Shown: positions 15,283 to 38,345 of the stretch, one piece after another | Numbering within the stretch: position 1 is the first letter of the stretch | Layout of the letters: each line of letters begins with the position of its first letter | Source: an uncultured Candidatus Bathyarchaeia archaeon | GTDB lineage: Archaea; Thermoproteota; Bathyarchaeia; Bathyarchaeales; Bathyarchaeaceae | NCBI GenBank assembly: GCA_964623205.1 | Contig: CAZUQX010000007.1 | Span: 12,665-76,664, forward strand | Direction: 5' to 3' | Length of the DNA stretch: 64,000 nucleotides | Translations under genes and position numbers: made by a program | The notes under the pieces: model-generated | Seen by the model: the letters and a program-made list of their open reading frames with translations, nothing else | Database searches by the model: none | Told to the model about the DNA's origin: nothing

Positions 15283-16350
15283 TTGGTGCCCATGTTGGGA
15301 GATAGACGGGCAACTCTCCTTGTATTTCTGGTTCTCTGTTGCATATTGGTTAGTATGCCTAACATTATCGTAGTTAAGGCAGCTGAGGATTCTTGGGCAA
15401 CTATGGAGCCAATGCCTACGGCTAGGAGTAGTCTTGGGGTTGCTGTTGTGGATGGTAAGATTTATGGTATTGGAGGTTTCAATGGCAGTTTTCTGGGCAC
15501 TAACGAGATGTATGATCCTGCTACAGATACGTGGGTGACAAAAACGCCAATGCCAACGCCTAGATGCAATTTCGCCATTGCTGTTCATCAAAATAAAATA
15601 TTCGTCATAGGAGGAACTATAGGTCCAATGGTTGATACAGGGGTGAACGAGGTTTATGATACTATAACGGACACTTGGGAAACCAAAAGTGGCATGTCAG
15701 TGACAAGAAAGGGATCATGTGCAAACGTTGTTAATGACAAAATATATCTGATAGGCGGTGTACAAACGGGGATCCCGCCTTTTCGTGTTACCGGTGAAAC
15801 CAGAGTTTATCACATTTCAAATGATTCTTGGACCACCAATACACCCATACCAACTCCTGTTTCTAATTACGCATCTGCAGTCAGCGACAATAAAGTATAC
15901 ATAATTAGCGGTCATTTAGATTCAGGCACTGATTGTAACTTGACTCAAATTTATGAGCCTGCAACTGACACGTGGAGTTACGGCACGCCTCTTCCTGTTG
16001 CTATTTTTGGGGCATCTGCAGGAGCTACTTCTGGCGTCTTGGCTCCAAAACGATTCCATTTGCTATATTGGGATATTCAGTATGTTTATGACCCCGAAAA
16101 CTCCACATGGACTAGCGGCACTCCAATGTTAACCGCTCGTTATGGCGCAGGGGTCGCAGTGGTAAATGATGAAATATACGTCATTGGCGGATCCGACGGT
16201 GAAACTTACCGAAACGAGAATGAAAAATATACTCCAGCAGGCTATATCCCAGAGTTTCCATCATGGATAATTCTACCACTATTTTTAGTTATCATGTTAT
16301 TTGCAATAATCATCAGAACGAAAATATTCGCTGATTCTTCTCTGAAATAG
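15283..16350 (+). CDS. Secreted Kelch-repeat beta-propeller protein with PEF-CTERM-type C-terminal sorting signal
   Basis: N-terminal signal/TM (LLVFLVLCCILV). About 6-7 repeats of W...MP..R......KIY.IGG. C-terminus YIPEFPSWIILPLFLVIMLFAIIIRTKIF has P-E-F, a TM helix and basic residues. Confidence 0.75.
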   Translation: MVPMLGDRRATLLVFLVLCCILVSMPNIIVVKAAEDSWATMEPMPTARSSLGVAVVDGKIYGIGGFNGSFLGTNEMYDPATDTWVTKTPMPTPRCNFAIAVHQNKIFVIGGTIGPMVDTGVNEVYDTITDTWETKSGMSVTRKGSCANVVNDKIYLIGGVQTGIPPFRVTGETRVYHISNDSWTTNTPIPTPVSNYASAVSDNKVYIISGHLDSGTDCNLTQIYEPATDTWSYGTPLPVAIFGASAGATSGVLAPKRFHLLYWDIQYVYDPENSTWTSGTPMLTARYGAGVAVVNDEIYVIGGSDGETYRNENEKYTPAGYIPEFPSWIILPLFLVIMLFAIIIRTKIFADSSLK

Positions 16351-21234: not shown

Positions 21235-23328
21235 GTGGATTTGCCTAGAATACGTCTTGGACGGAGTGTTCTCTCTAATGTCAATGAGGCTCTTCGAAGA
21301 GAATGGCTTGTAACCAACGGGTTAGGCGGATACGCTTCCTCGACTATTTTGGGAATTAACACCAGAAAATATCATGGTCTCCTCGTTGCAGCATTTAATC
21401 CTCCAGTAAATCGCTGGGTTCTGCTGACAAAGCTTGACGAAGAAATTAAAATCGGAAATAGACTCTACGCCCTAGGGGCTAACGAGTTCAGGGACGTCAT
21501 ATACCCTGAAGGATACCGTTTTCTCTCTAACTTCGTCCTCAACCCCCTCCCAACTTACAATTACGCTGTGGAAGGTGTTAGCCTTCAAAAGACGATTTTC
21601 ATGCCCCAAGGAAAAAACGCGACCATAGTAATCTACGAAGTCTCCAATCCATTAGACGAAAAGATATCTATCCACATCTCACCACTCGTCAATTCAAGGC
21701 ACATCTACCACATAACGAACAAGAACATGTTACCGTGGAGATTTTTTCAGAAGCGCTTCAGACAAGGCGTGATAATAGAGCCCTCCGATCCGATATCCTC
21801 TCTGATCCTGTCCTCAGGCAATGACGAATCTTTCGTGGAGGAGAATTGGTGGGTTGAGAAAATATTCTTCAGGACAGATGCCTCCAGAAATGAAAGCAGT
21901 ATCGACGACTACTTTAGACCAGGATTTTTCCGGTTTTCTGTCGATTCGAAAGAAAAGAAGAAATTTTATGTCCTTGCTGCAGCTGGAAAAAGCGAGGCGG
22001 AAGCCCAGAATCTTTATACATCCCTTGGCAAAGGTAAGGAATACATCGATCGGTTGCTTCGGCAGGAGTTAGAGCGCCGAGAAGGTTTGTTAAAAAAGTT
22101 CCAGGAACGCCACGCTGACTTAGAAATGGCGGAGTGGTTGAAGTGGCTCACCCAGGCGGCAGTCTCTTTCATTGTGAAGAGAGCCTCAACCGGAAAGAAG
22201 TCTGTTATTGCTGGTTACCCGTGGTTTGATGATTGGGGAAGGGATTCCCTCATTTCTCTGCCTGGGCTAACGCTTGTCACTGGGAGGTTTGAGGATGCAC
22301 AGGAGATTTTGTTGACTTTTAAGCACTATTGTAAAAACGGTGTCATCCCCAATCGTTTCTCGGACACGGCTGAAGATGCACCAATCTACAACACGGTGGA
22401 CGCCACCTTGTGGTTCTTCAACGCTGTTCTTCAATACCTCAAGTATACTGGTGATTTTGAATTTGTTCGAGAAAATTTGTGGGAAACATTGAATGAGATC
22501 GTTGAGTATCACATTAAAGGCACCATCTTTGCCATTCACATGGAAGAAGATGGATTGATTGTGCATGGTCCACAACTGACTTGGATGGACGCTGCTACAA
22601 TTGACCGTTTTGTTACGCCAAGAGGGGGGAAGGCAGTTGAGATCCAAGCCTTGTGGTATAACGCCCTGAAAACCATGCAGTTGCTAGCAGAAAATTTCAA
22701 TTATGGAGATAAAGCAGAAGAATATTACAGCATGGCTGAAAAAGTTAGAAAAAGTTTTTCAGAAAAGTTTTGGAACCCCAAGAAAGAATACCTCTTCGAT
22801 GTAGTATCTGAGCATGGCACTGACCCATCGTTAAGACCGAATCAGGTGATTGCTGCCTCGTTGGACTTTCCTATTCTTGACAGTGGAAAAGGGGAGAAGG
22901 TCGTTGAGATAGTCTGGAAAAAACTGTGGGGCAGTTACGGGCTTAAAACTCTCCCTAACGATGATCCACGATATATAGGCGAATACATCGGTGATCGTGG
23001 TCATCGCGATAGTGCATATCACAACGGCACGGTTTGGGCGTGGCTTATCGGCCCCTTCACCACAGCTTTCTTAAAGACTAAAAATCACGAAACACGTTGG
23101 CGAAACTTTGCCTTCAAAAGGTTTCTTCAACCTCTCTTCTGTGAAGAAATTTACCGAGGTGGCTTAGGAACGGTTAGCGAAATCTTTGATGGTGATGAGC
23201 CGCACATTACCAGAGGTTGTATTTCTCAGGCTTGGAGCGTAGCTGAGCCATTAAGAGCCTACGTTGAGGACGTAGCTTTGAAGAGACCTCCCCATGAAAG
23301 AGAAATTCTAAATACTCGTACATATTAG
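21235..23328 (+). CDS. Archaeal-type glycogen debranching enzyme (amylo-alpha-1,6-glucosidase, GDE_C)
   Basis: 697 aa. N-terminal EWLVTNGLGGYASSTI..NTRKYHGLL, and C-terminal (alpha/alpha)6 motifs GYPWFDDWGRDSLISLPG, TWMDA, YHNGTVWAWLIGPF. Confidence 0.85.
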   Translation: MDLPRIRLGRSVLSNVNEALRREWLVTNGLGGYASSTILGINTRKYHGLLVAAFNPPVNRWVLLTKLDEEIKIGNRLYALGANEFRDVIYPEGYRFLSNFVLNPLPTYNYAVEGVSLQKTIFMPQGKNATIVIYEVSNPLDEKISIHISPLVNSRHIYHITNKNMLPWRFFQKRFRQGVIIEPSDPISSLILSSGNDESFVEENWWVEKIFFRTDASRNESSIDDYFRPGFFRFSVDSKEKKKFYVLAAAGKSEAEAQNLYTSLGKGKEYIDRLLRQELERREGLLKKFQERHADLEMAEWLKWLTQAAVSFIVKRASTGKKSVIAGYPWFDDWGRDSLISLPGLTLVTGRFEDAQEILLTFKHYCKNGVIPNRFSDTAEDAPIYNTVDATLWFFNAVLQYLKYTGDFEFVRENLWETLNEIVEYHIKGTIFAIHMEEDGLIVHGPQLTWMDAATIDRFVTPRGGKAVEIQALWYNALKTMQLLAENFNYGDKAEEYYSMAEKVRKSFSEKFWNPKKEYLFDVVSEHGTDPSLRPNQVIAASLDFPILDSGKGEKVVEIVWKKLWGSYGLKTLPNDDPRYIGEYIGDRGHRDSAYHNGTVWAWLIGPFTTAFLKTKNHETRWRNFAFKRFLQPLFCEEIYRGGLGTVSEIFDGDEPHITRGCISQAWSVAEPLRAYVEDVALKRPPHEREILNTRTY

Positions 23329-23437
23329 TAAATAAGAAATTTTAAAAAAGGCGAGGAATAACCTTTTTCTTCCTGAAGTCATTAATACAACATGGAACTT
23401 TAGTAACTTAGGTAGTTTTAGAGAAGGTAATGAAAAG

Positions 23438-24199
23438 ATGGTTAAAGAAACAGGCGGAGCATCTAAAAGGATGTTTATCACTGGACTTATCATCGTACTT
23501 CTTGTTTCCCTTGCACTTTCAACATTAATTGCTAGTCAATGGGCTGTTGGACCACAGGGTCCACTAGGACCACAAGGAGAAGAAGGACCCACAGGGGACA
23601 CAGGACCACAAGGAGAAACTGGACCACAAGGACCACAAGGAATACAGGGACCAACAGGAGCTACAGGACCACAAGGAGAAGAAGGACCTACAGGGGACAC
23701 AGGACCACAAGGAGAAACTGGACCACAAGGAGCCACCGGACCACAAGGACCACAGGGAGAGCAAGGCATTGGATTTGAACCCCAAAGCCGCATTTCAGTT
23801 CCAGCAACAGCATTCATATGCCTTGATACCCAGTACGAATTCAACCCGTTTGTATTAAGAAATGATCTGTCCATACCGCTCAATTTTGTCGCACCACTTC
23901 AACTCCCCCATGGAACCACCATCACAGACGTTACTTTCTATTGGTATGATAATGGTACTGATGTTATCGATTTTTCTTTGGTTAGGTATGAGCGGGTTCA
24001 GGCTTACACAATGGGCTCTTGTTCTTCTCCTTCCACGGAACTGGTAGGAGATGGTTCCTCTTCTCCTGTTGCTATAAGCTTTGAAACCGTCGACAACAGC
24101 CAGTACGTTTACTACTTGCATGTCTATATTCCTGCTTCCCTTACAGAAGGGGAATACATGTTCTATTATGCAATTATAGAATATGAATTTCCAGCATAA
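23438..24199 (+). CDS. Membrane-anchored collagen-like (G-X-Y)24 repeat protein with about 140-aa C-terminal globular domain
   Basis: N-terminal TM helix ([20 protein letters not shown]). There are 24 uninterrupted Gly-X-Y triplets at nt 23549-23764 ([24 protein letters not shown]...). The C-terminal domain has no motif I recognise. Confidence 0.8.
23576..23731 (+). repeat. Near-perfect 57-bp direct repeat (99-bp period) inside the collagen-like region
   Basis: 23576-23632 and 23675-23731 (GGAGAAGAAGGACC[C/T]ACAGGGGACACAGGACCACAAGGAGAAACTGGACCACAAGGA) differ at one position. Confidence 0.85.
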
Positions 24200-24467
24200 A
24201 CACCAGAGATACAATCCCCACTCTTTCTCTGCATTTTTCTTCTTGCCCGAAAACTTACGTATGGAAATACTGTAAATCTCGTGTGAATGTAGCATTCTAA
24301 AATTTTAAAAGTAGAAGACAATGCAGAATTTCTTGGGAGACTTGTGGAAACGGTTTGGTGAATGGCCTAACCAAAAGGATAAACTTAGATAATGCGTGTA
24401 CCGCCTAATGAGTTGGATTACATATGACTCTTACAACTACATGGGTTCAAATGAATAGTGGTCAACC

Positions 24468-26066
24468 ATGACAGATGTTTGTCTAATGTTTGAGGTTCAT
24501 CAGCCATTCAGGTTGAACCGTAATTTTCACTCTGACCTGCTGTCTAAAGGAAAAGTAACAAAAAAGGAGCTTTTTGACCTCTATTTTGACAACGGACTTA
24601 ACCGTTACATTTTCGAGAGAGCCGCAAGGAAATGTTACTTTCCAGCAAACAGCATAATCTTAGAACAGATTGAACAATGCAAGAGAGAACGGAAAAAGTT
24701 CAAGGTAACTTACGGGATATCCGGAGTCTTCCTTGAACAGTGTGAACGATGGAACCCAGACCTCATCGAATCCTTCAAACAACTCGCAGAAACCGGCTGC
24801 GTCGAATTCATGAATGAAACATACTACCACTCGTTGGCTAGCCTTCACGGAACAGATCGCTCAGAATTTGTGGAACAGGTTGAAATGCATCGTCAGCTCA
24901 TGAAGGACCTCTTCAATTATGAACCACAGGTTATCGAAAACACTGAGTTACTATACAACAACGCCATAGCTAAGACAATGGAGGGAATGGGTTACAACGG
25001 CACAGTTACAGAAGGCATTGAGAGGCTTATCTGGGGAAGAAGCCCCAACTACGTCTACAAAGCCAAAAACTCTAACCTCCGCGTGTTACTCCGCAACTAC
25101 CGCCTCTCCGACGACATAGGATTCCGCTTCTCCTCAAATTGGTGGAGCGAATATCCTCTAGACGCAACCAAATACGCCCGGTGGCTAGCCGCAACCCAAG
25201 GACAGGTGATTGTTCTTTTCGTTGACTACGAAACATTTGGGGAGCACCACTGGTCAGAATCTGGAATTCACGAATTCTTAAGATGGCTACCAAGCGAAGT
25301 GAACAAATGGCACAACCTTCACTGGCAAACTCCCTCCGAAGTCATTAAGAGGCACGCTCCAGTCGGTGAAATCGACGTTCATGAATACAACACCGTCTCG
25401 TGGGCTGACATTGAACGAGACCCCAGCGCGTGGATTGGCAATCCAATGCAGAACATTTGTTATGACTCTTTGAAGGAACTTGAACCGTTGGTGAAAGGAA
25501 TCGGCGACAAAGAGCTTATTCGTCTGTGGCGGTACCTCCAGATGAGTGACCACCTGTATTACCTCAGCATAAAGGGAGGAGGACCTGGAGACGTACACAA
25601 CTACTTCAGTCCCATGGGCAGTCCGGTAGAAGCCTTTGCGGTATACTCACGAATCCTCTCCGACCTCGAAGCCAGAATCCTCGTAGAACTAGAAAAACCA
25701 GAACTGGCAGCAAAGAGGATGCTGAGGCGGCTTCCAGCTGGAATGGGATTCACCTTCTCTTACGACTTTGCTCGCTCCTCTGGTTTAACAGTTCACAGCT
25801 TAAACGAATTTTATTCAACACTGAAGACCATTGACCTTAGCTCTATTCGGTTTCATGTGGAAAAAGGAGATTTCGAACGCTGGCTACGCCAAGTTGTCGG
25901 CGAAAACAAACTAGCTGATGAGATGGCAAAAATCAGTAGGGCAAGCAAAAAGCTGAAAGGGGAAGCATTACGCAAGAAAGTTCTTGCTGCAACTGAAAGA
26001 AGAATAAAACAATTGAAAGGAATTACTAATGAAGGCTCTACCCGTTTAAAGGCAAAGGAAGGCTAG
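24468..26066 (+). CDS. GH57-family alpha-glucan-active enzyme (alpha-amylase/glucanotransferase type) with extra C-terminal about 90-aa module
   Basis: 532 aa. N-terminal MFEVHQPFRL and DYETFGEHHW fit GH57. C-terminal residues about 427-516 are homologous to the C-terminus of the 29453..30007 protein. Confidence 0.8.
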   Translation: MTDVCLMFEVHQPFRLNRNFHSDLLSKGKVTKKELFDLYFDNGLNRYIFERAARKCYFPANSIILEQIEQCKRERKKFKVTYGISGVFLEQCERWNPDLIESFKQLAETGCVEFMNETYYHSLASLHGTDRSEFVEQVEMHRQLMKDLFNYEPQVIENTELLYNNAIAKTMEGMGYNGTVTEGIERLIWGRSPNYVYKAKNSNLRVLLRNYRLSDDIGFRFSSNWWSEYPLDATKYARWLAATQGQVIVLFVDYETFGEHHWSESGIHEFLRWLPSEVNKWHNLHWQTPSEVIKRHAPVGEIDVHEYNTVSWADIERDPSAWIGNPMQNICYDSLKELEPLVKGIGDKELIRLWRYLQMSDHLYYLSIKGGGPGDVHNYFSPMGSPVEAFAVYSRILSDLEARILVELEKPELAAKRMLRRLPAGMGFTFSYDFARSSGLTVHSLNEFYSTLKTIDLSSIRFHVEKGDFERWLRQVVGENKLADEMAKISRASKKLKGEALRKKVLAATERRIKQLKGITNEGSTRLKAKEG

Positions 26067-26094: not shown

Positions 26095-27885
26095 GTGCAA
26101 GTAGAGAGGCTTTTGATTATGATTAGAGATCCTGTCTGCGGGCTACCATTAAATGAGACCAATACAGAATTCAAGGCTGAAGTGAGGGGAAGAACATACC
26201 ATTTCTGCGGTGAATACTGCAAACGCGCCTTCCTGCGGGGAAAGAGAATAGCCTACTTCTCCATGGAAATCGGATTGAACAACGATTTTCACACCTACAG
26301 TGGAGGTTTAGGAGTATTAGCTGGTGACATGATAAAATCCAGCGCTGACCTTAAGATACCGTTAGTAGGAGTCACTCTCGTCAGCAGGAAGGGGTACCTA
26401 AGACAGGAGCTTAGAGACGGAAAACAGATCGAGTATCCGGACGAGTGGATGCCGTCCAAATTAATGACTGAATTGCCAACTCAAGTCGAGTTGAATATAC
26501 AGAATCGAAAAGTCAGAGTAAAAGCTTGGCTTCATGATTACCAGAGTCCCACAGGAGGATTGGTTCCTGTCCTATTTCTTGACACAGACGTCGAAGGTAA
26601 CACCCCCGAAGATAAGGAGATTACTTCTTTCCTGTATGGTGGCGACGAGAGGTACCGGTTGAAGCAGGAGATCGTCTTGGGAATTGGCGGGGTAAAAATG
26701 CTTGAAGCCGCTGGCTTCAGAATAGGAAAGTATCACATGAACGAGGGGCATTCTTGTCTCCTCACGTTGGAGTTGTTGGCAAGGAACGGTATGGAGCTGG
26801 ATGAGGTGAGAGATCTTTGCATATTCACCACTCATACTCCAGTAGAGGCGGGTCACGACAAGTTCTCGTATGATCTTGTCCAAGAAATGTTGGGTGAAAT
26901 GATTCCTCTGAAAACCATGAAGAAACTTGGAGGAGAAGATCGGCTGAATATGACGCGTCTGGCACTTAACTTAAGCAAATATGTGAACGGCGTTGCTAAA
27001 AGACATAAAGAGTTTTCCTTAACCTTATTCCCAGGTTACAACATCACAGCCATAACTAACGGTGTCCACTCTTTCACATGGACCTGTGAGAGTTTCAGAA
27101 GGCTTTTTGACAAGTATCTGCCGGGATGGGCTAACGAACCTGAATTGTTGGTGAGGGTAGACAGCATCCCCGACGGGGAGATCTGGCGGGCTCATATGGC
27201 GGCGAAAGAGGCTCTAATACGTTATGTTCGTGAATTATCAGGTCTCCGATTTGATAGCGACGTGCTTACTTTTGGTTTTGCTCGAAGATCCACCGGCTAC
27301 AAAAGACCAAGTCTGCTATTCTCAAACATAAAGAGACTTGAAGAAATCAACAAGGTGGGAAAGATTCAAGTTGTTTATGCGGGCAAAGCTCATCCCAAGG
27401 ATTGGATGGGGAAACGGTTAATCGAAGAGATTCATGAGATGAAAGAGAATCTGAAGGGTCTGATGAAGATTGTCTATTTAGAAAATTATGATCTGCAGAT
27501 GGCGGCTAAGCTTACTTCGGGTGTAGATGTCTGGTTGAATACTCCTCTCCCACCTTTTGAGGCTTCTGGCACAAGCGGGATGAAGGCAGCCCATAATGGG
27601 GTGATAAATTTCAGTGTCTTGGATGGTTGGTGGGTGGAGGGTTGTGTTGAGGGTGTCACGGGTTGGGCTATTGGGCCTTCTCCAAAAGAAAACTTGGAAG
27701 AGGCGGATAGGAGATATCGGGAGGTCACAGAATTATACAGTAAATTGGAGTATGTGGTTGTCCCCAAATTCTACCGAAATAGGGATGATTGGATACGAAT
27801 GATGGAGAACTCGATTGGAAAGGTTGCCTACTACTTCAACAGCCACAGAATGATGCGAAGATACGCATCAGAAGCCTACCTGTAA
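26095..27885 (+). CDS. Alpha-glucan (glycogen/maltodextrin) phosphorylase, short GT35 type, with N-terminal YHS-type metal-binding domain
   Basis: YFSMEIGL...YSGGLGVLAGD, VNGVAKRH, TNGVH and EASGTSGMKAAHNG (the PLP-lysine region) fit GT35. The N-terminus DPVCGLPLNETNTEFKAEVRGRTYHFCGEYCKRAF is a YHS pattern. The probable true start is the ATG at 26119. Confidence 0.85.
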   Translation: MQVERLLIMIRDPVCGLPLNETNTEFKAEVRGRTYHFCGEYCKRAFLRGKRIAYFSMEIGLNNDFHTYSGGLGVLAGDMIKSSADLKIPLVGVTLVSRKGYLRQELRDGKQIEYPDEWMPSKLMTELPTQVELNIQNRKVRVKAWLHDYQSPTGGLVPVLFLDTDVEGNTPEDKEITSFLYGGDERYRLKQEIVLGIGGVKMLEAAGFRIGKYHMNEGHSCLLTLELLARNGMELDEVRDLCIFTTHTPVEAGHDKFSYDLVQEMLGEMIPLKTMKKLGGEDRLNMTRLALNLSKYVNGVAKRHKEFSLTLFPGYNITAITNGVHSFTWTCESFRRLFDKYLPGWANEPELLVRVDSIPDGEIWRAHMAAKEALIRYVRELSGLRFDSDVLTFGFARRSTGYKRPSLLFSNIKRLEEINKVGKIQVVYAGKAHPKDWMGKRLIEEIHEMKENLKGLMKIVYLENYDLQMAAKLTSGVDVWLNTPLPPFEASGTSGMKAAHNGVINFSVLDGWWVEGCVEGVTGWAIGPSPKENLEEADRRYREVTELYSKLEYVVVPKFYRNRDDWIRMMENSIGKVAYYFNSHRMMRRYASEAYL

Positions 27886-27953: not shown

Positions 27954-28097
27954 CTATTTCGTAAATTTACTTCGATTTCTCTTGAATTTCTTTTTGCATT
28001 TAACACTGCAGAAATAATATTTTTCTCCATCATGAGTGATTTTATATTTAGCTGTCTTTTCGTTTAGAACGACGCCACAGACTGGATCTCTAGGCAT
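27954..28097 (-). CDS. 47-aa stand-alone YHS-domain mini-protein (not in supplied ORF track)
   Basis: My own translation of the minus strand gives MPRDPVCGVVLNEKTAKYKITHDGEKYYFCSVKCKKKFKRNRSKFTK. ATG is at 28097-28095 and the stop at 27956-27954. The YHS consensus DPVCG...YYFCS..C is present. Confidence 0.6.
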   Translation of the reverse strand: MPRDPVCGVVLNEKTAKYKITHDGEKYYFCSVKCKKKFKRNRSKFTK

Positions 28098-29452: not shown

Positions 29453-30007
29453 GTGCAGAAGATGAGTGCGAGCAAAATCAGGGGAAAGATTTTGGTAGTG
29501 TTGTGGGCTGCTGGAAAGCCGATTACCCTTCAAGGGATAGCTGAAAAAGTAGGATTAAATTCATCCTCAACAATGGGATACGTGCTAGGTCTCATAAAAG
29601 CAAAATACGTTTCTGTGCCTCAGAAACATTCCTACGCCATAACAAATCTGGGCAAACAAGCGTTAGGGCTGCCAAAAGTAGACAAGAAACTGGTATCGAA
29701 CATTCTGAGTCCCGTCTCCATAGAAAGAGCCTTCCATTTCTACTATGATCTCAATCAGTACTCTGGCATTCATGCAGACAGCCTCCAAGATTTCGTTGAA
29801 AAAATCCAAGCGGTCGATTTGAAGTCCATCGAATTCCATATTCCACGAAAAGACTTTGAACTTTGGATTCGCTCGCTGGGAGACCTAGAACTCTCCAAGA
29901 AGTTAGAATTGCTGCGAATGGCACAGTTGTCTGGAGAAAGCCTCAGAAAAGAGCTCTACGAAACCATTAAGTCCAGATGCGAAGAACTGACGAGGCTTTC
30001 CCTCTAA
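29453..30007 (+). CDS. wHTH protein fused to the same about 90-aa module found at the C-terminus of the GH57 enzyme
   Basis: N-terminal RGKILVVLWAAGKPITLQGIAEKVGLNSSSTMGYVLGLIKAKYV is wHTH-like. Residues about 92-184 (FHFYYDL..SG....SLQDFVEKIQAVDLKSIEFHIPRKDFELWIRSLGD) align with GH57 residues 427-516. Confidence 0.55.
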   Translation: MQKMSASKIRGKILVVLWAAGKPITLQGIAEKVGLNSSSTMGYVLGLIKAKYVSVPQKHSYAITNLGKQALGLPKVDKKLVSNILSPVSIERAFHFYYDLNQYSGIHADSLQDFVEKIQAVDLKSIEFHIPRKDFELWIRSLGDLELSKKLELLRMAQLSGESLRKELYETIKSRCEELTRLSL

Positions 30008-32414: not shown

Positions 32415-33785
32415 TTATTCTGCAGGTTCATAAGATTTCCAGAAATGGAGTGTGTTCCCTGCCTTCTTGATAATATCATTATATGTTAATACTTCCACAT
32501 TATGAAAGCTCTCTTTCAATAGCGTTAGTTTCTCTTTTTGAACTTTTGTTAGTCTTGTTCCAGAAAGTGCTCCTATTACGGCTATTCCCTTTGAATTATA
32601 ACCCAATGATGTTTGTTCAATATAATAATCAACAGCTTGATTTATACCATCGTATACTTTCTTTGATAACGTGCCATCCTTATTGAATATCGGGTCATTT
32701 GCTTCTTCAAGTTCGATTAAAACACATTTGTCTAATCCATCGATACGTTCAATTATGAAATCCGCATGTTTTCTTTTGCCGATTTTTGTGTCTCCTGTTA
32801 GTTTTCCATCTGGAGTAATGTCTGAAAGGATTTTCTTGTCGAAATATTCTATACCTAAAAGCCAATAATCTTTTGCTAGCAGTTTATGTATAGCTTTTTC
32901 ATCTTTTTTCACAGAATCTTGGTGTCTTTTAATTTGTTTTTTAAATTTCCTTAAACTTCTCTGCAGTTTTTCATATCTGTCCATCATTTTGGACATTTCT
33001 GGTAGTTTCTTAATTATTTTGTTCTGGTCTCTCCTTGATAATTTAGAAAGTTGTTTAATGAAAAGTCGAGATACTTTAGATTTTAGAAGTGAATTTAATA
33101 ATTCCCCAACCTCTTCTTCACCAAGTTTCTCTATCACTTCAATGAACGTTTTGAGTTGTATTTTTGGAGCTTTGGGTTTGAGTTTCACATACTCCTTAAT
33201 AATTTCTGTCCCTAACGGTGAGTGCTCCAAGGCTTTTTTCAATTTCATTTTTTGTTCGGCAGTCATTCTGTCAAATTCTTTAATCAGATTCTCCAAAATG
33301 TTGTAATATGAATTTTTCAGTTCATTAACCAATGCATTTGGGGATTTACCTTTAAAGAAATGCTGCGGAACTTTTTTAGAAAAATCACCCCAAATTTTAT
33401 GGGAATACTTATTTAGCCTTAATTCATTAACGGCAGAATCTATTTTCTTGCCGTATTTGACATAAACATCAAAATTAATTTTAACCCAATTTTTCCCATT
33501 TTCCGTGGTTTTATAATAGGGTGCAAAGTGTTTTCCCTTGAAAAAAAGCAATTCAAAATTTTCTAATCCATCATATTCCTTTTTCATGCAGCTTAACATG
33601 TGTCTCAATTTGGTGAAACCGTATTTAATCCAATTCTCTTTCTCTTCTTTTGAGGGTCTAAATGCAAAGTAAATTTCTTTCTCCTTCAAATCGTCATAAA
33701 ATCTCCATTGTGTGCCACAACAAAATTTGTCGATTACTTGAAATTCAGGTGATGCGGGAACGCTTTTTAATTGTTTATCAATCAT
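32415..33785 (-). CDS. Shedu-like (DUF4263-type PD-(D/E)xK nuclease) defence protein with long helical N-terminal region
   Basis: 456 aa. The C-terminal part reads KAIHKLLAKDYWLLGIEYFDKK...KRKHADFIIERIDGLDKCVLIELEEAN...INQAVDYY...IAVIG. This follows the DUF4263 pattern as I remember it (pwLlG...Dfl....vivE.K...Q...Y). Confidence 0.55.
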   Translation of the reverse strand: MIDKQLKSVPASPEFQVIDKFCCGTQWRFYDDLKEKEIYFAFRPSKEEKENWIKYGFTKLRHMLSCMKKEYDGLENFELLFFKGKHFAPYYKTTENGKNWVKINFDVYVKYGKKIDSAVNELRLNKYSHKIWGDFSKKVPQHFFKGKSPNALVNELKNSYYNILENLIKEFDRMTAEQKMKLKKALEHSPLGTEIIKEYVKLKPKAPKIQLKTFIEVIEKLGEEEVGELLNSLLKSKVSRLFIKQLSKLSRRDQNKIIKKLPEMSKMMDRYEKLQRSLRKFKKQIKRHQDSVKKDEKAIHKLLAKDYWLLGIEYFDKKILSDITPDGKLTGDTKIGKRKHADFIIERIDGLDKCVLIELEEANDPIFNKDGTLSKKVYDGINQAVDYYIEQTSLGYNSKGIAVIGALSGTRLTKVQKEKLTLLKESFHNVEVLTYNDIIKKAGNTLHFWKSYEPAE

Positions 33786-33829
33786 TTATGTCGGATTCCA
33801 TCTAAACTATCCAATCATTGTGAAGTGAC

Positions 33830-34342
33830 TCAACCACGATTTTTATCAACCTCGTATTCTGCCTCTCCCTCTTCGACTCCTTTCCTCGCCTTTTCATATG
33901 CTTCTCTGGGAATTTGAAGTGAATTCTGATTTAGTTCGTTTCTAAGACATGAAAATTCCTTCAGGATTTTAGTTAGTTTATCAATCGAGCTTTCATTAAC
34001 AATATCAATCTCTCGGAATATTCTCACTCTGTTTCTCAGCGAATTGTATTTGTTGCCAGCATCTTGATGCGAACAGGTTTTTTCATTGGGATTAAGAAAT
34101 GTAATAATTGCTGTTAGTGCAGCAACGACAATAGCCATGAAAGCAGTAATGATTTCATGATAGGAAAATTGTGTTAGGGCTGAGACTCCAGAAAGTGCAG
34201 CCAATACTACTGCGGGCAAACCCAAATATCGGTGAATATTTCGCCATTTGTTTGCAGCTTCAAAATGTCCTTTTGCCGAATATAGGCAATCTTCTTCTAT
34301 TCTTTTCGCCTCATCAACAATCTTTGCTTTCAGGTCTACCAT
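33830..34342 (-). CDS. SLATT-type 2TM effector-like protein
   Basis: 170 aa. An N-terminal helix (YSAKGHFEAANKW) is followed by two TM helices (LGLPAVVLAALSGVSAL / ITAFMAIVVAALTAIITFL) and a helical tail (HQDAGNKYNSLRNRVRIF). Its start lies 11 nt after the stop of the upstream NTase gene, with GAGGT between them. Confidence 0.6.
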   Translation of the reverse strand: MVDLKAKIVDEAKRIEEDCLYSAKGHFEAANKWRNIHRYLGLPAVVLAALSGVSALTQFSYHEIITAFMAIVVAALTAIITFLNPNEKTCSHQDAGNKYNSLRNRVRIFREIDIVNESSIDKLTKILKEFSCLRNELNQNSLQIPREAYEKARKGVEEGEAEYEVDKNRG

Positions 34343-34353
34343 TTTACTACCTC

Positions 34354-35286
34354 TTAATAATATGAAGGAAAATGAGAATCAAAAACTAGGTTCCACCAGT
34401 AGAAAGCGTCAGAAATCTTTTCATTTTTTTCGGTTTCTCTCGCCTTATTTGCACGAATCAAAGCAGTTTGCAATTTTGAATATGCCTCTTGTTTTTGTGC
34501 TTCAGTTTGGCAAGCAGGAATAACCCCTGATATTCCCATTGGGTCTTGAATTCCTGCAAGACTATTACTATACAATTGGCTGAGGATTTTTCTAACATCA
34601 TATGAATACTCAATATAATCCTCACCAGAGGCGTATTTTGTTACACGTAATTCAAGGTAAAAAGATGAAATAGGAACGTTTCTAAAATACTTCCAAGCCT
34701 TTAAGAATCTAACAAGAGGTTTAACCTTGTAACCTTTCTCTTTATTAACATAAGTAACCCATGAATTATGGGCTTTTGGGGAAGAGTTCATCCATCCTCC
34801 ATTCCCATCGGGAATTTCGTAGATGTTATAGCCATTACTGCTTGTTTTGATGAAATCCGCAGGAACAACCTCAGTTGATTCTGAGGCATCTCTTCCAAAT
34901 GGAACCCAAACGGCAGGTGTTCTTACCGAAACGCCTGTATTTGGAAATCTAACATCAAGGGCATTCCGCATCTTACGAAGAGTTGTAAGGGAGTTTTCAT
35001 TTAAATTGCCTGATGGTATAACAGCGAAATAATCGACATCGCTATAACCACGAATACTGGTTGCATTCCCAAATGACCCTGTTTTGAAAAAATGTGTCAT
35101 TCCAAAGCTTGATACAAGACATGCTTTTATTGAATCACGATGTCCCTTTGCAGCCTCCGATTCTGTCAAAGTTGGCGTAAGACGACTATGAAATTCTTTA
35201 AATCCTTCTTCAACGGTCTTAGCCAAATCCTCACAACTCCGATAGTTTTTTCTTGAAGTAAAATATGAAGAATGGAACGCCACCAA
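34354..35286 (-). CDS. SMODS / CD-NTase-like minimal nucleotidyltransferase (putative second-messenger synthase); start uncertain
   Basis: TGSFGNATSIRGYSDVDYFAVIP (G-S...D-x-D), TEVVPADF (third acidic residue), W..SSPKAH and RFLKAWKYF...SSFYLEL. The ORF-track start is a TTG that overlaps the upstream small ORF. An alternative TTG at 35226 lies just after that ORF's stop. Confidence 0.65.
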   Translation of the reverse strand: MVAFHSSYFTSRKNYRSCEDLAKTVEEGFKEFHSRLTPTLTESEAAKGHRDSIKACLVSSFGMTHFFKTGSFGNATSIRGYSDVDYFAVIPSGNLNENSLTTLRKMRNALDVRFPNTGVSVRTPAVWVPFGRDASESTEVVPADFIKTSSNGYNIYEIPDGNGGWMNSSPKAHNSWVTYVNKEKGYKVKPLVRFLKAWKYFRNVPISSFYLELRVTKYASGEDYIEYSYDVRKILSQLYSNSLAGIQDPMGISGVIPACQTEAQKQEAYSKLQTALIRANKARETEKNEKISDAFYWWNLVFDSHFPSYY

Positions 35287-35431
35287 TTCCAGTAAAGATT
35301 ATCCTGAAAGTTTCGTTATTAAGATAGAGTAAGGAATCAATTACGCTGGCTGTTGCGTAAATCCCGATGATAGCGATTATTGGTATAACAAAGAAGTCTT
35401 TAATCGCCTTTTCAACTCTGTCTTCGCCCAT
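35231..35431 (-). CDS. 66-aa two-TM peptide, first gene of the cassette
   Basis: ATG at 35431 is preceded by GGAGGAG (complement of 35438-35444) with a 6-nt spacer. There are two hydrophobic helices (FFVIPIIAIIGIYATASVI, IIFTGIGGVPFFIFYF). Confidence 0.45.
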   Translation of the reverse strand: MGEDRVEKAIKDFFVIPIIAIIGIYATASVIDSLLYLNNETFRIIFTGIGGVPFFIFYFKKKLSEL

Positions 35432-35437
35432 GTAATT

Positions 35438-35485
35438 CTCCTCCTGATGATAGTTTGTTTAATATTTTGTAGCGATATATTTAAA
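35438..35485 (-). promoter_or_regulatory. SD (GGAGGAG) and TATA-like box (TTTAAATATAT on minus strand) upstream of the 4-gene cassette
   Basis: 35475-35485 ATATATTTAAA lies about 45-55 nt upstream of the ATG at 35431, inside a 187-bp AT-rich gap after the RM gene. Confidence 0.35.
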
Positions 35486-35618
35486 TGTTTGGACATAAAT
35501 ATTAAATTACTCTTTGTTATCAACTGGATTTTTGGTAATTGGCTTTTGAGTTAAACTACCCAAAGAAAAAGAAACATATGGAGAGAGTCAAATGAAACTG
35601 CTAACTCTGAAATGAAAA

Positions 35619-38345
35619 TCATAGATTTCCTTCGATAATCCTTTGCTCTTTCTCGGTTATTCCATAAATCTTGTAAACCAGCTCGTCAATTTGGCAGTTA
35701 ATTTTGTCCATTTCCTTCTCAAGTCTAGCCCGTTCATCTGTCATTTTGTCACCAATTTGGTTTACACGAGCTTTGAGAGACAGCATCCTATTAACAAGTT
35801 GTATTAATGTTTGTTCAGATTCTTGAGCAACTTTTATCGGAAGTTCTTCCAGAAACTTAGTTCTATACCTCAAATAGCCTCCACCCATATGCATACCACC
35901 AAATAATACAAAATAAACAAAAGAAACCAGTTTTGAATTGAGCAAGCCGAGAATATATTCTAATGAAGTGTTTTCATTTTTCAATACCCCAAAATAAACT
36001 CCGCCTTGTGGTATTCTCTTCTCATAATCCATGGTAGCAGTTATTCTTAACGCATCTTCAGCGATGACAATTTTTCTTTTTAAACTGTTTACATACCTTT
36101 TTGATGTTGTGCTTATGACTTTTTTTAAGTTATTTTTTGTTATATAGCTGCCTTTGCTAATTGAACTGTATCTATCGAATTGATATTGTTTCAAAATTTC
36201 GAAATCATTAACAATGTTCTCTTCTAATGTTGTTGGTATTCTTAGCCCTTCAGAAATCTTAAGGTATTTTGATAATTTATCGCATTTTCTCAGTAATTTT
36301 ATAACAATGTCAAATTGTTCTTGGCTAATATTAATTGGGAAGATTTTTGAAGGCAAAACTTCCAAATCCCTTCGTGTTAGCCAATAATTTACAAAATTTT
36401 TATTTAAGAATTCATCACGTGTTGATACCGAACCGATATTAATCCTTTTTACATTTTTTCCCTTTGTAAGAAAAAGAAGAACTGGATAATTTGCAGCCTC
36501 TTTAAAAATATCTAAATGGCTAACACTTATAATTGTGCAATGGCTTGAATTCTTTACAATAATTTCCCTCAGTTTTTCAGCAGAACTGGCAGCACAAAAT
36601 TTGTTCGGCAAGATGAAGCCACATTTCCCACCTTCTTGCAACCACTTGAAAACGCTTTCAATAAACAAATAGTAGATGTCGTATTTTCCATAAGCTGAAC
36701 TAAAAACATCTTTCCAATATGTTTTTTCAACAATTTTTAGGTTATCTACTCTAACATACGGTGGATTTCCGATAACAACATCAAATCCTCCTTCTTTCAT
36801 TATGTCATCGAATTCATCTTCCCATCGAAAAGCTATGTTGCCTGCAATATTTTCATCGTCAATTATCGAGTTTCCCCGCCTGATGCTTTCTTCCAGTAAT
36901 GGTAATCTATGTCCCTTCTCAGCTATTTTGAGTAATAGATTGAGTTGTGCAATTTCAACTGCCTGTTTGTCTAAATCGACACCAAAAATATTGTCTTGGA
37001 GAATTTTTGCCTTTTTTGTAAATGGAATATCAATTTTTTGTTTGTCCAACTGAGTTTGACTATAATCCTTGATATTTTTCTTATAATATTCATCGAAAAT
37101 ATCGAATGCTTTAATCAGGAAGCTACCTGAGCCACAAGCAGGGTCTAATACTCTAATTTCTTCTACGTTGACTTTCTTTTTTTCCAGAATTTTGCCTAGA
37201 GTATTCCTAACGATGTAATCAACGATGTAGGTTGGAGTGTAGTAAATTCCCTGTTCTTTTCTATGTATCCCATTTTTGGTGACTCTTGCTCTTTTTGCAG
37301 TCTTTTTCAAAATGTGACTTAAGTATTGCTCATAGATGTTACCTAAAACGTCAGCATCGATTACTGAAAAATCGTAAGAAATAGAGAAATACTTCTCTTT
37401 TGTGAAATACAACCCCTTTATTATTTCAGATAATATTTCGTTATCAATTTCTAGTTGGTCACACAAATGTTTAGTAAATATCTTGCTGTCATAGTGTTCA
37501 TCAAAGTAACTGAAAATCTCTCTGAGACCTTTTACTAATTTTCCTCTGCCTCTGCTTCTCCATTCCCTTAATTTTGAAATCAAAAGTTTTTCTTCAAGCT
37601 CTTTGTCTTCACAATTTCGAATAAAAATAAGCCTGTCTAAGATTCTTTGAACTGACTCGTCCAACTCTTCTTTTGACAACTTTTCTTTTACGTTTAATTT
37701 CGTTATGCTCTTTGTGAGCATTCTTCTATATTTTGTAAAGTCCTCAAGAAGTTGCTCATCTATGGATGCTTTCTTAGTCTTTTTACTCCGTCTTTCTGCT
37801 GTTTCATCTAACAAACCTTTTTCGAAACTTTCTTTCGACAAAAGCCATAATTCATCAAATCTTTCAAGAAAATCGTCATACGTGATGGTTGTAAAATGGC
37901 TCTGTAAATAGTTAGCTGCCTTCCACTCAGCATTAAGAATTTTCACAGCTTCAAAATCTGTAAGAACTGCCCATGTGCAACCTTTATGCCATGCATAGCT
38001 GATTGCCTGCTCAAAATACTCTTCTTTATCCAAATCTGCTTTTAGTGACTTTGCTTCTAGGTAGAATTTTGGAATTCCATCAATTCTGAAACCATAATCC
38101 ACACGCTTTTTAGAAATTGTTTCTTCGGCAGTAACCTCTTTGGAATCTTGAAAATTCCAACCTAGTGCACGAAATAAAGGTTGAATGAAACCAATTTTAG
38201 TCATCTCTTCATTGTATTCTTTGACTCTATTTTCCTCTACAACTTTGTTGTATTTTTCTACAAGTTCTGCGATTTCGCTTCGAGCTTTTTCTTTGTCCAT
38301 TGTGGATACTAATTTTGTGGTTTCGATTATAACTTTTTGGGGCAT
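35619..38345 (-). CDS. Type IIG restriction endonuclease / N6-adenine DNA methyltransferase fusion (Eco57I-like)
   Basis: 908 aa. The N-terminal PD-ExK nuclease is of HsdR-N type (VDYGFRIDG..FYLEAKS). Methyltransferase motifs are VLDPACGSGSFL (motif I) and VVIGNPPYV (motif IV). The C-terminal specificity region ends in KIYGITEKEQRIIE. Confidence 0.85.
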   Translation of the reverse strand: MPQKVIIETTKLVSTMDKEKARSEIAELVEKYNKVVEENRVKEYNEEMTKIGFIQPLFRALGWNFQDSKEVTAEETISKKRVDYGFRIDGIPKFYLEAKSLKADLDKEEYFEQAISYAWHKGCTWAVLTDFEAVKILNAEWKAANYLQSHFTTITYDDFLERFDELWLLSKESFEKGLLDETAERRSKKTKKASIDEQLLEDFTKYRRMLTKSITKLNVKEKLSKEELDESVQRILDRLIFIRNCEDKELEEKLLISKLREWRSRGRGKLVKGLREIFSYFDEHYDSKIFTKHLCDQLEIDNEILSEIIKGLYFTKEKYFSISYDFSVIDADVLGNIYEQYLSHILKKTAKRARVTKNGIHRKEQGIYYTPTYIVDYIVRNTLGKILEKKKVNVEEIRVLDPACGSGSFLIKAFDIFDEYYKKNIKDYSQTQLDKQKIDIPFTKKAKILQDNIFGVDLDKQAVEIAQLNLLLKIAEKGHRLPLLEESIRRGNSIIDDENIAGNIAFRWEDEFDDIMKEGGFDVVIGNPPYVRVDNLKIVEKTYWKDVFSSAYGKYDIYYLFIESVFKWLQEGGKCGFILPNKFCAASSAEKLREIIVKNSSHCTIISVSHLDIFKEAANYPVLLFLTKGKNVKRINIGSVSTRDEFLNKNFVNYWLTRRDLEVLPSKIFPINISQEQFDIVIKLLRKCDKLSKYLKISEGLRIPTTLEENIVNDFEILKQYQFDRYSSISKGSYITKNNLKKVISTTSKRYVNSLKRKIVIAEDALRITATMDYEKRIPQGGVYFGVLKNENTSLEYILGLLNSKLVSFVYFVLFGGMHMGGGYLRYRTKFLEELPIKVAQESEQTLIQLVNRMLSLKARVNQIGDKMTDERARLEKEMDKINCQIDELVYKIYGITEKEQRIIEGNL

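Follow-up and report, generated by a model that had tools for sequence, protein, structure and literature searches.

The window examined here, a stretch of 64,000 nucleotides (nt) from contig CAZUQX010000007.1 of an uncultured Candidatus Bathyarchaeia archaeon, contains a small gene for a collagen-like protein predicted to be displayed at the cell surface. The gene is a complete, ATG-started open reading frame (ORF) encoding 253 amino acids (aa) plus a stop codon, as read from the ORF list and directly from the DNA, and a protein in an NCBI-derived collection (P0172) is 100% identical to its product. An earlier interpretation made from the letters alone (hereafter the sequence-only reading) had placed it between the genes of a debranching enzyme (GDE) and a GH57 enzyme, all on the same strand, which the ORF list and Pfam confirmed (Table 1). 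It had also proposed a layout of membrane anchor, collagen stalk and C-terminal globular head, and hydropathy, the Pfam Collagen match and the predicted structure of the head agree with this layout, which is kept throughout the collagen-type homologues.

The sequence comparisons identify the ORF as a genuine coding gene under purifying selection. Over 144 codons of the head domain, comparison with the relative from locus L003 gave 0.83 synonymous (dS) and 0.086 nonsynonymous (dN) substitutions per site (dN/dS 0.10), and the changes in stalk length among relatives, with 10 to 34 triplets, are always in frame; together these results exclude a non-coding satellite whose repeats vary out of frame, the alternative that had been raised for this region. 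The leader contains TATA-like AT-rich elements (TTTTAAAAAA at 23340-23349 and TTAATA near 23382) and a Shine-Dalgarno-like GAAGGT at 23423-23428, 9 nt ahead of the ATG, which may serve as promoter and ribosome-binding site, and the T-rich tract behind the stop codon (including TTTTT at 24234-24238) is a possible archaeal oligo-T termination signal. A promoter and terminator scan found no bacterial-type hairpin terminator, its sigma-70 and hairpin models being inapplicable to archaea. Since the 109-nt gap to the GDE gene carries the TATA-like elements and GAAGGT, and the 268-nt gap to the GH57 gene the T-rich tract and another TATA-like element, the gene may well form a separate transcription unit. 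Two minus-strand ORFs opposite the collagen repeat (23536-23883 and 23564-23785, of 115 and 73 aa), Pro/Cys/Gly- or Ser/Leu/Trp-rich in composition, were rejected as genes; they mirror the codon periodicity of the G-X-Y repeat, and gene callers could mistake them for real genes.

Table 1 Positions of the collagen-like gene, its parts and its flanking genes in the window.
Feature	Position	Strand	Basis
GDE_N/GDE_C debranching enzyme	21235-23328	+	Pfam
Intergenic leader	23330..23437	+	Read from sequence
Complete coding sequence, collagen-like predicted surface protein	23438..24199	+	ORF list, identical protein P0172, dN/dS
Short basic N-terminal tail, residues 1-11, predicted cytoplasmic	23438..23470	+	Sequence; positive-inside rule
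Single hydrophobic helix, residues 12-33	23471..23536	+	Kyte-Doolittle
Collagen-like region, residues 38-112, 25 uninterrupted G-X-Y triplets	23549..23773	+	Pfam Collagen, composition
Duplicated 66-nt block, first copy	23567..23632	+	65/66 identical to second copy
Duplicated 66-nt block, second copy	23666..23731	+	65/66 identical to first copy
C-terminal head domain, residues 113-253, predicted eight-strand jelly-roll beta-sandwich	23774..24196	+	AlphaFold, Foldseek, profile search
T-rich tract 3' of the stop codon	24222..24245	+	Read from sequence
GH57 enzyme	24468-26066	+	Pfam
Phosphorylase-like protein with N-terminal YHS domain	26095-27885	+	Pfam

The N-terminus holds the single hydrophobic helix that had been read from the sequence as a transmembrane helix, the Kyte-Doolittle 19-residue mean reaching its maximum of 2.65 at residues 13-31. 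The tail ahead of it is polar and basic and is conserved among close relatives, and basic residues flank the helix on its N-terminal side only (K3, K10 and R11). In at least 25 related loci, a hydrophobic segment of ~20-24 residues ends 0-6 residues ahead of the first triplet. Following the positive-inside rule, the helix would probably act as an uncleaved signal anchor of type II.

The stalk begins at residue 38 with the 24 uninterrupted Gly-X-Y triplets previously counted between nt 23549 and 23764, which become 25 when the adjoining GIG (23765-23773) is included. It matches the Pfam family Collagen (PF01391) with E=6.4e-15 and 55.1 bits against a cutoff of 27.2, and this match places the protein in the broad class of collagen-like proteins known from prokaryotes. 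Proline occupies the X position in 14 of the 25 triplets, the Y position is taken by Gln in 12 and Thr in 9, and the stalk is acidic, with 7 Glu and 2 Asp and neither Lys nor Arg. With the rise of 0.286 nm per residue of the collagen triple helix, its 75 residues would span ~21 nm if triple-helical. The view that collagen repeats are uncommon in archaea needs qualifying: archaeal collagen-like domains have already been catalogued in bulk in a 2025 survey, with QGP, TGP and TGA triplets over-represented (PMC11923368), and the QGP, TGP and TGA triplets of our stalk agree with this enrichment.

Stalk length appears to be evolutionarily labile. Tandem Repeats Finder detected a period of 99 nt with 2.1 copies and 88% matches. 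The near-identical copy and the period given by the sequence-only reading thus stand, although the duplicated block measures 66 nt with 65 identical positions, not 57 bp with 56. The same block is single in the relatives P0001 and P0002 (83-92% identical), so that the duplication is best seen as recent and lineage-specific, in line with the recent expansion suggested before. Variation of repeat number, which had been proposed for examination among related metagenome-assembled genomes (MAGs), was also found among related loci: at least 25 of them carry 10 to 34 triplets, every change being in frame, and the stalk lengths calculated for relatives range from 6 to 29 nm (7-34 triplets). In the Bathyarchaeota bin490 chromosome (CP070714.1, locus L007, 9599-10440), a collagen-type homologue is split over two frames and has its repeat broken by a stretch of masked N, probably through misassembly of these G-X-Y codons; 3' of it lie an integrase-like fragment and an SMC-like ATPase, and an SMC_N gene is likewise located downstream in L011.

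The head domain presented a different picture, as curated libraries contained nothing like it. We found no Pfam, NCBIfam or PHROG match for the domain alone, nor for the heads of eight full-length homologues or of the 28 members of our alignment; no CBM (carbohydrate-binding module) family of Pfam matched any of these 28 members at E<=1. Likewise, neither the head nor the 28-member profile matched C1q, TNF or BclA C-terminal profiles in Pfam, NCBIfam or PDB sequences, and PDB sequences searched with 5- and 28-member head profiles returned only noise (E>=0.09). A word-indexed search with the head alone had yielded four relatives, and the resulting idea of an orphan domain was overturned when a HMMER profile was run exhaustively over 1.84 billion cluster representatives, of which it retrieved 3068 at E<=1e-3, 598 at E<=1e-10 and 46 at E<=1e-30, each standing for a cluster at 50% identity. 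All source annotations that we encountered for these proteins were 'hypothetical protein'. The head is therefore a candidate new domain family, large in size and covered by none of Pfam, NCBIfam, PHROGs and PDB sequences. Its alignment displays the motifs SIPAAAF, APVQLPHGATVT, TFYWYD, LxR, SSGxxGxGS, ATVDNSxYxY, LP and IEYxY, with SIPAxAF and QLPHGxTxT also among them. The sequence-only reading had described a cysteine-containing domain of ~140 aa without recognisable motif and had proposed a homologue search. Its description holds for the curated libraries; it does not hold for the 3068 representatives retrieved, nor for the cysteines, which are replaced by Ser in an 83%-identical relative and are absent from distant homologues, so that conserved cysteines or a disulfide were rejected.

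The family heads are found in six architectures: (a) a transmembrane helix, collagen and head in proteins of 200-290 aa, which stem in most cases from Bathyarchaeia or Thermoproteota MAGs and otherwise from a Dehalococcoidia group; (b) a transmembrane helix with the head directly after it; (c) a signal peptide, one dockerin-like EF-hand repeat (DxNDDGxIDIxD), a heptad-rich segment and the head; (d) long tail-fibre-like, LamG-containing or peptidase C25-containing bodies with the head at the end; (e) a signal peptide, the head and a C-terminal transmembrane helix; and (f) secreted proteins of ~500 aa with three tandem heads. All of them carry signal peptides or transmembrane anchors, which indicates that family members are extracellular, and in nearly every architecture the head is the distal C-terminal end with the attachment device opposite, type (e) being the exception. 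In a rough neighbour-joining tree of the heads, without support values, collagen stalks fall on at least three separate head subclades and the subclade of our protein is interleaved with dockerin-type proteins, a distribution suggesting the modular exchange of stalks. This dockerin-type sister architecture (P0033, P0045, P0060, P0070, P0075 and P0101; loci L018 and L022) has a YDPWxDxNDDGxIDIxD...GTPINKT repeat and a heptad-rich segment in place of the collagen stalk.

We modelled the head with AlphaFold2 from a 5-sequence alignment and obtained an eight-strand beta-sandwich (predicted local distance difference test, pLDDT, 76.6; predicted template-modelling score, pTM, 0.74). Its best Foldseek matches in the PDB were the domains III of Cry toxins (Cry4Ba, Cry5B, Cry11A/B), with TMq up to 0.67 (0.62-0.67 for Cry11Ba), followed by CBM36, CBM61, CBM35, CBM6 and CBM15 with TMq of about 0.47-0.56; the E-values of the Cry11Ba, CBM35 and CBM36 matches were 2e-4 to 2e-3. 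Weaker matches linked it with the TNF-like C-terminal domain of Pgp3 and with Eiger TNF (TMq 0.37-0.47), the eight strands of the model comparing with ten in the TNF/C1q jelly-roll. Among predicted viral structures (BFVD), uncharacterised phage proteins and giant-virus C1q, BclB-C and collagen proteins were matched with TMq of 0.4-0.63. The model thus suggests a sandwich of jelly-roll topology that belongs broadly with lectin/CBM or TNF folds, between which the data do not discriminate, in agreement with the kinds of fold anticipated by the sequence-only reading.

Several family traits make a trimeric head plausible. Among 261 collected family proteins, 200 have a single head, 46 have three and 15 have two, never more than three, and most of those with two come from gene calls cut short at the N-terminus or retain a third copy that is degenerate. 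The three-head protein P0006, modelled with a 38-sequence alignment, forms a compact unit whose pLDDT of 89.9 and pTM of 0.87 point to three confidently packed domains. Comparison of tandem copies in the same position gave values of 0.30-0.32, against 0.285-0.294 for different positions, without a clear signal of position-specific conservation. The three-head secreted proteins (P0006-P0154), of ~500 aa, share a conserved C-terminal YLPxxxK tail. For collagen stalks, the trimer is the natural state. The folding of collagen nucleates at the C-terminus (PMC11923368), which fits with a trimerising head at this end. The trimeric surface stalk with a binding head that had been proposed from the sequence thus keeps its stalk, head and layout, with the trimer plausible from the family architectures and copy number and binding the probable function.

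The genes around the collagen-like gene were compared across 33 related loci by tblastn with the GDE, GH57 and phosphorylase-like proteins of the window. Only two loci had matches, both close relatives. One is L016, a metagenome contig with a head 85% identical and with GDE, collagen-like gene and GH57 in the same order as in the window; the other is L003 (head 83% and GDE 75% identical), where an opposite-strand radical-SAM gene follows at the place occupied by GH57 in the window. Distant loci had other neighbours: eIF-1A and a C1 peptidase (L001), methionine aminopeptidase (L006), carbamoyl-phosphate synthase (L007), RNase P and ribosomal proteins (L009), TBP and Alba (L011), an NYN nuclease (L012) and OMP decarboxylase (L014). 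Overall, the nine longer related loci showed chromosomal housekeeping neighbours, none of them conserved. The three glycogen enzymes of the window lack N-terminal hydrophobic segments in their ORF translations and are therefore most likely cytoplasmic. Several of these flanking genes have peculiarities of their own. The fusion of a metal-binding YHS domain to a glucan phosphorylase is unusual, and just 3' of this gene a 47-aa ORF (27954-28097, minus strand) looks like a stand-alone zinc-ribbon peptide of the YHS/TRASH type. DUF5752 occurs both at the C-terminus of the GH57 enzyme (24468-26066) and in a 184-aa ORF (29453-30007) with a winged-helix-like N-terminus (DUF7347), which may be a regulator or partner common to the glycogen genes.

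Taking these observations together, we propose, with a probability of roughly 60%, that the product of this gene is a small fibre on the cell surface of a Bathyarchaeia-type archaeon, trimeric, anchored as a type II membrane protein and ending in a binding head, and that its location among glycogen genes is accidental. The N-terminal helix would insert as a signal anchor leaving the basic tail inside and the remainder of the protein outside. Three chains would then join through their C-terminal beta-sandwich heads, and the joined heads would nucleate the zipper-like folding of the 25 triplets, from C- to N-terminus, into a triple helix of ~21 nm, which would hold the trimeric head away from the membrane at about the distance of an archaeal S-layer. 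The head would be the functional part, most likely an adhesin or lectin-like binding module, and its CBM/Cry-III-like fold suggests that the ligand may be a glycan. The stalk would act as a spacer of adjustable length, lengthened or shortened by in-frame duplication and deletion of repeats. More speculatively, the Thr residues in Y position and the N-x-T sequons (ITNVT in many homologues) might be glycosylated, as in BclA (PMC8968730). Several points weigh against this proposal. As a long Sec signal peptide, the hydrophobic segment could be cut after ...LIAS, which would make the protein secreted instead of anchored. The confidence of the head model is only moderate (pLDDT 76.6 from five sequences) and its fold matches are generic beta-sandwiches (TM 0.4-0.67) that point to no ligand. 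The stability of a triple helix is uncertain, as the stalk has no Lys/Glu or Lys/Asp salt-bridge triplets and hydroxyproline is not expected. Finally, single-chain APRIL-BAFF and single-chain C1q are among the Foldseek matches of the P0006 model, but the global superposition on them is poor (TM about 0.18) and does not confirm a TNF-like three-fold packing.

Other explanations concern either the way in which the fibre is attached and used or its origin. If the Sec signal peptide were cleaved, the stalk and head would be released or held non-covalently at the envelope, as a soluble collagen-like trimer similar to C1q or adiponectin-type molecules. The small residues that follow the hydrophobic core (..STLIAS|QW, and ..SSAISVGVS|T in relatives) offer a potential signal-peptidase site, and in other family members the signal peptide is clearly of the cleavable kind and has an AQA motif. 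However, a stretch of 20-24 residues with a hydropathy of 2.65 is more typical of a membrane span, collagen-type members have neither the AxA motif of the dockerin-type ones nor any other anchoring module, and the other family architectures place an attachment device (dockerin-like repeat, transmembrane helix or large body) opposite the head; we consider a secreted trimer unlikely, if worth keeping in mind. It is also conceivable, although improbable in our view, that the protein is a structural component of the envelope with its own envelope as partner, either a spacer or tether from the membrane to an S-layer or sheath or a lattice made by the heads. The calculated ~21 nm (6-29 nm among relatives) falls within the pseudoperiplasmic spacing of archaea, the gene is single-copy in a chromosomal housekeeping context, and the head is under strong purifying selection, unlike the diversifying selection common in adhesins. 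Yet stalk length and type vary widely among close lineages, which would be unexpected for a fixed architectural spacer, and the occurrence of an identical head type on secreted bacterial three-copy proteins and on peptidase C25/LamG fusions points to a general binding module.

The genomic location invites two further explanations. A role of the fibre in binding extracellular glucan was hinted at by the sequence-only reading. A function within the glycogen cluster, for example the capture of glucan to feed the pathway of debranching enzyme, GH57 and phosphorylase, could be argued from the position of the gene, from the identical gene order in L016 and from the resemblance of the head to CBM35, 36, 6 and 61. 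Nevertheless, the glycogen genes accompany it at just 2 of the 33 loci, L003 already lacking GH57, whereas the distant members adjoin unrelated housekeeping genes such as those listed above; the three enzymes, without signal sequences, would act on intracellular glycogen, the intergenic elements suggest separate transcription, and the CBM resemblance is generic (TM about 0.5) and has no counterpart in sequence matches to CBM families of Pfam. We regard the functional link as highly improbable, and the location looks like a shallow, lineage-specific accident of gene order. Even less likely is the derivation of the gene from a virus or prophage, as a remnant of a tail or turret fibre. PHROG tail-fibre families do match the protein, with E down to 2e-27, the BFVD matches include phage and giant-virus proteins of collagen, C1q and BclB-like type, and an integrase fragment lies downstream in L007, with another faint integrase match ~8 kb off in L001. 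However, the PHROG matches are limited to residues ~36-121, that is, to the repeats, and the head alone gave at best E=0.093. No relative of the head was found among 50,697 GenBank phage genomes (INPHARED, tblastn with two queries) or, in pattern-limited scans with two pattern sets, among 2.9 million IMG/VR contigs, the family alignment A3 being too divergent for deriving search patterns. Capsid, portal, terminase and tail genes were absent near the gene in the window and in every related locus, and neither a G+C anomaly nor a flanking tRNA marks an insertion. The phage-fibre head in a prophage context that the sequence-only reading had named as a counter-indication was thus looked for and not found.

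The rest of the window has the content of an archaeal chromosome, with Nre, NucS, a MinD/ParA-like ATPase, triose-phosphate isomerase, a class V FBP aldolase/phosphatase and a defence island; local G+C at the collagen-like gene is unremarkable and no tRNA was detected in the window or flanking the gene. Of these genes, Nre, NucS and the class V FBPase are archaeal markers, and together with the homologues in Bathyarchaeia MAGs they support a Bathyarchaeia-type origin. The defence island (32415-38345, minus strand) comprises a Shedu-like SduA_C gene (32415-33785), a SLATT_4 effector with two transmembrane segments (33830-34342) beside a SMODS nucleotidyltransferase (34354-35286), and an Eco57I/MmeI-like type IIG restriction-modification enzyme (35619-38345). 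Another predicted surface protein is a Kelch-repeat beta-propeller (15283-16350, plus strand), which begins with a signal-like segment and carries a hydrophobic anchor at its C-terminus.

Among the uncultured archaea of sediments, Bathyarchaeia rank with the most abundant, and to our knowledge almost nothing is known about their cell surface. Conserved membrane-anchored collagen fibres with a defined head would provide a handle on it, as antibody targets, as landmarks in cryo-electron tomography and as baits for ligand screens. The most interesting aspect is the head-domain family itself, large and outside Pfam, NCBIfam, PHROGs and PDB. Its presence on four kinds of stalk, together with the tandem arrays of exactly three heads, suggests that the head is a trimeric binding module of general use. 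A broader view, which we put forward tentatively and hold to be somewhat doubtful, is that the family consists of three-fold extracellular binding modules of archaea and bacteria (trimeric or single-chain pseudo-trimeric), a prokaryotic functional counterpart of C1q/TNF heads interchangeable on collagen, coiled-coil or beta-fibre stalks; in that case, the proteins of Bathyarchaeia would apparently be the first archaeal membrane-anchored collagens described, surface receptors or adhesins with a stalk length tuned by repeat expansion. Archaeal collagen stalks, hydroxyproline-free, Gln/Thr-rich and poor in salt bridges, may also interest the field of collagen folding and biomaterials. In addition, the tempting inference of a glycogen function from the neighbourhood is removed as unsupported.

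Close parallels in topology are found in animals. Type II collagenous membrane proteins, such as ectodysplasin-A, the collagens XIII, XVII, XXIII and XXV and MARCO/SR-A, have a short cytoplasmic N-terminal tail, a signal-anchor helix and extracellular collagen, and in ectodysplasin-A a C-terminal jelly-roll trimer is the binding head. Our protein resembles them in layout, as judged from hydropathy and Pfam, and in its predicted topology, but it is much smaller (253 aa), has neither a furin site nor an N-terminal coiled-coil trimerisation motif and shows no detectable homology with them, so that the resemblance is almost certainly convergent. Among bacteria, BclA of the Bacillus anthracis/cereus exosporium and the other Bcl proteins share with it an N-terminal attachment, a collagen region of variable triplet number rich in Thr at Y and a C-terminal beta-sandwich tip of ~130-150 aa; in BclA too, repeat-number polymorphism alters the filament length and hydroxyproline is not needed (PMC8968730). 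However, BclA is attached to the exosporium basal layer by an N-terminal targeting motif instead of a membrane helix, and its head has been proven to form a C1q/TNF-like trimer whereas ours has no sequence match and only a weak TNF-like fold match (TMq 0.37-0.47), and our organism is an archaeon without spores. By the sequence tests, which failed for both, the protein is not a member of the BclA or ectodysplasin families. Streptococcal Scl1/Scl2 and Legionella Lcl are also prokaryotic surface proteins whose collagen-like stalk projects a globular domain, but the Scl/Lcl models of NCBIfam match the repeat region only (E 1e-14 to 1e-16; 53-59 bits, far under the cutoffs of 325-500), and Scl proteins have the opposite polarity, with an N-terminal variable head and a C-terminal LPXTG anchor. 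The best structural matches, Cry domain III and CBM6/35/36 (galactose-binding-domain-like), are receptor- or glycan-binding beta-sandwiches, but sequence identity is 7-15% and there is no profile-level match, the ligand-binding residues could not be mapped, and the similarity is one of fold and not of family. Archaea go unmentioned in a 2022 review of prokaryotic collagen-like proteins (PMC8968730), and our literature searches found no characterised archaeal collagen-like protein. Prokaryotic collagen-like proteins were thus already known as a class; what is new here is a predicted membrane-anchored collagen-like fibre from an archaeon.

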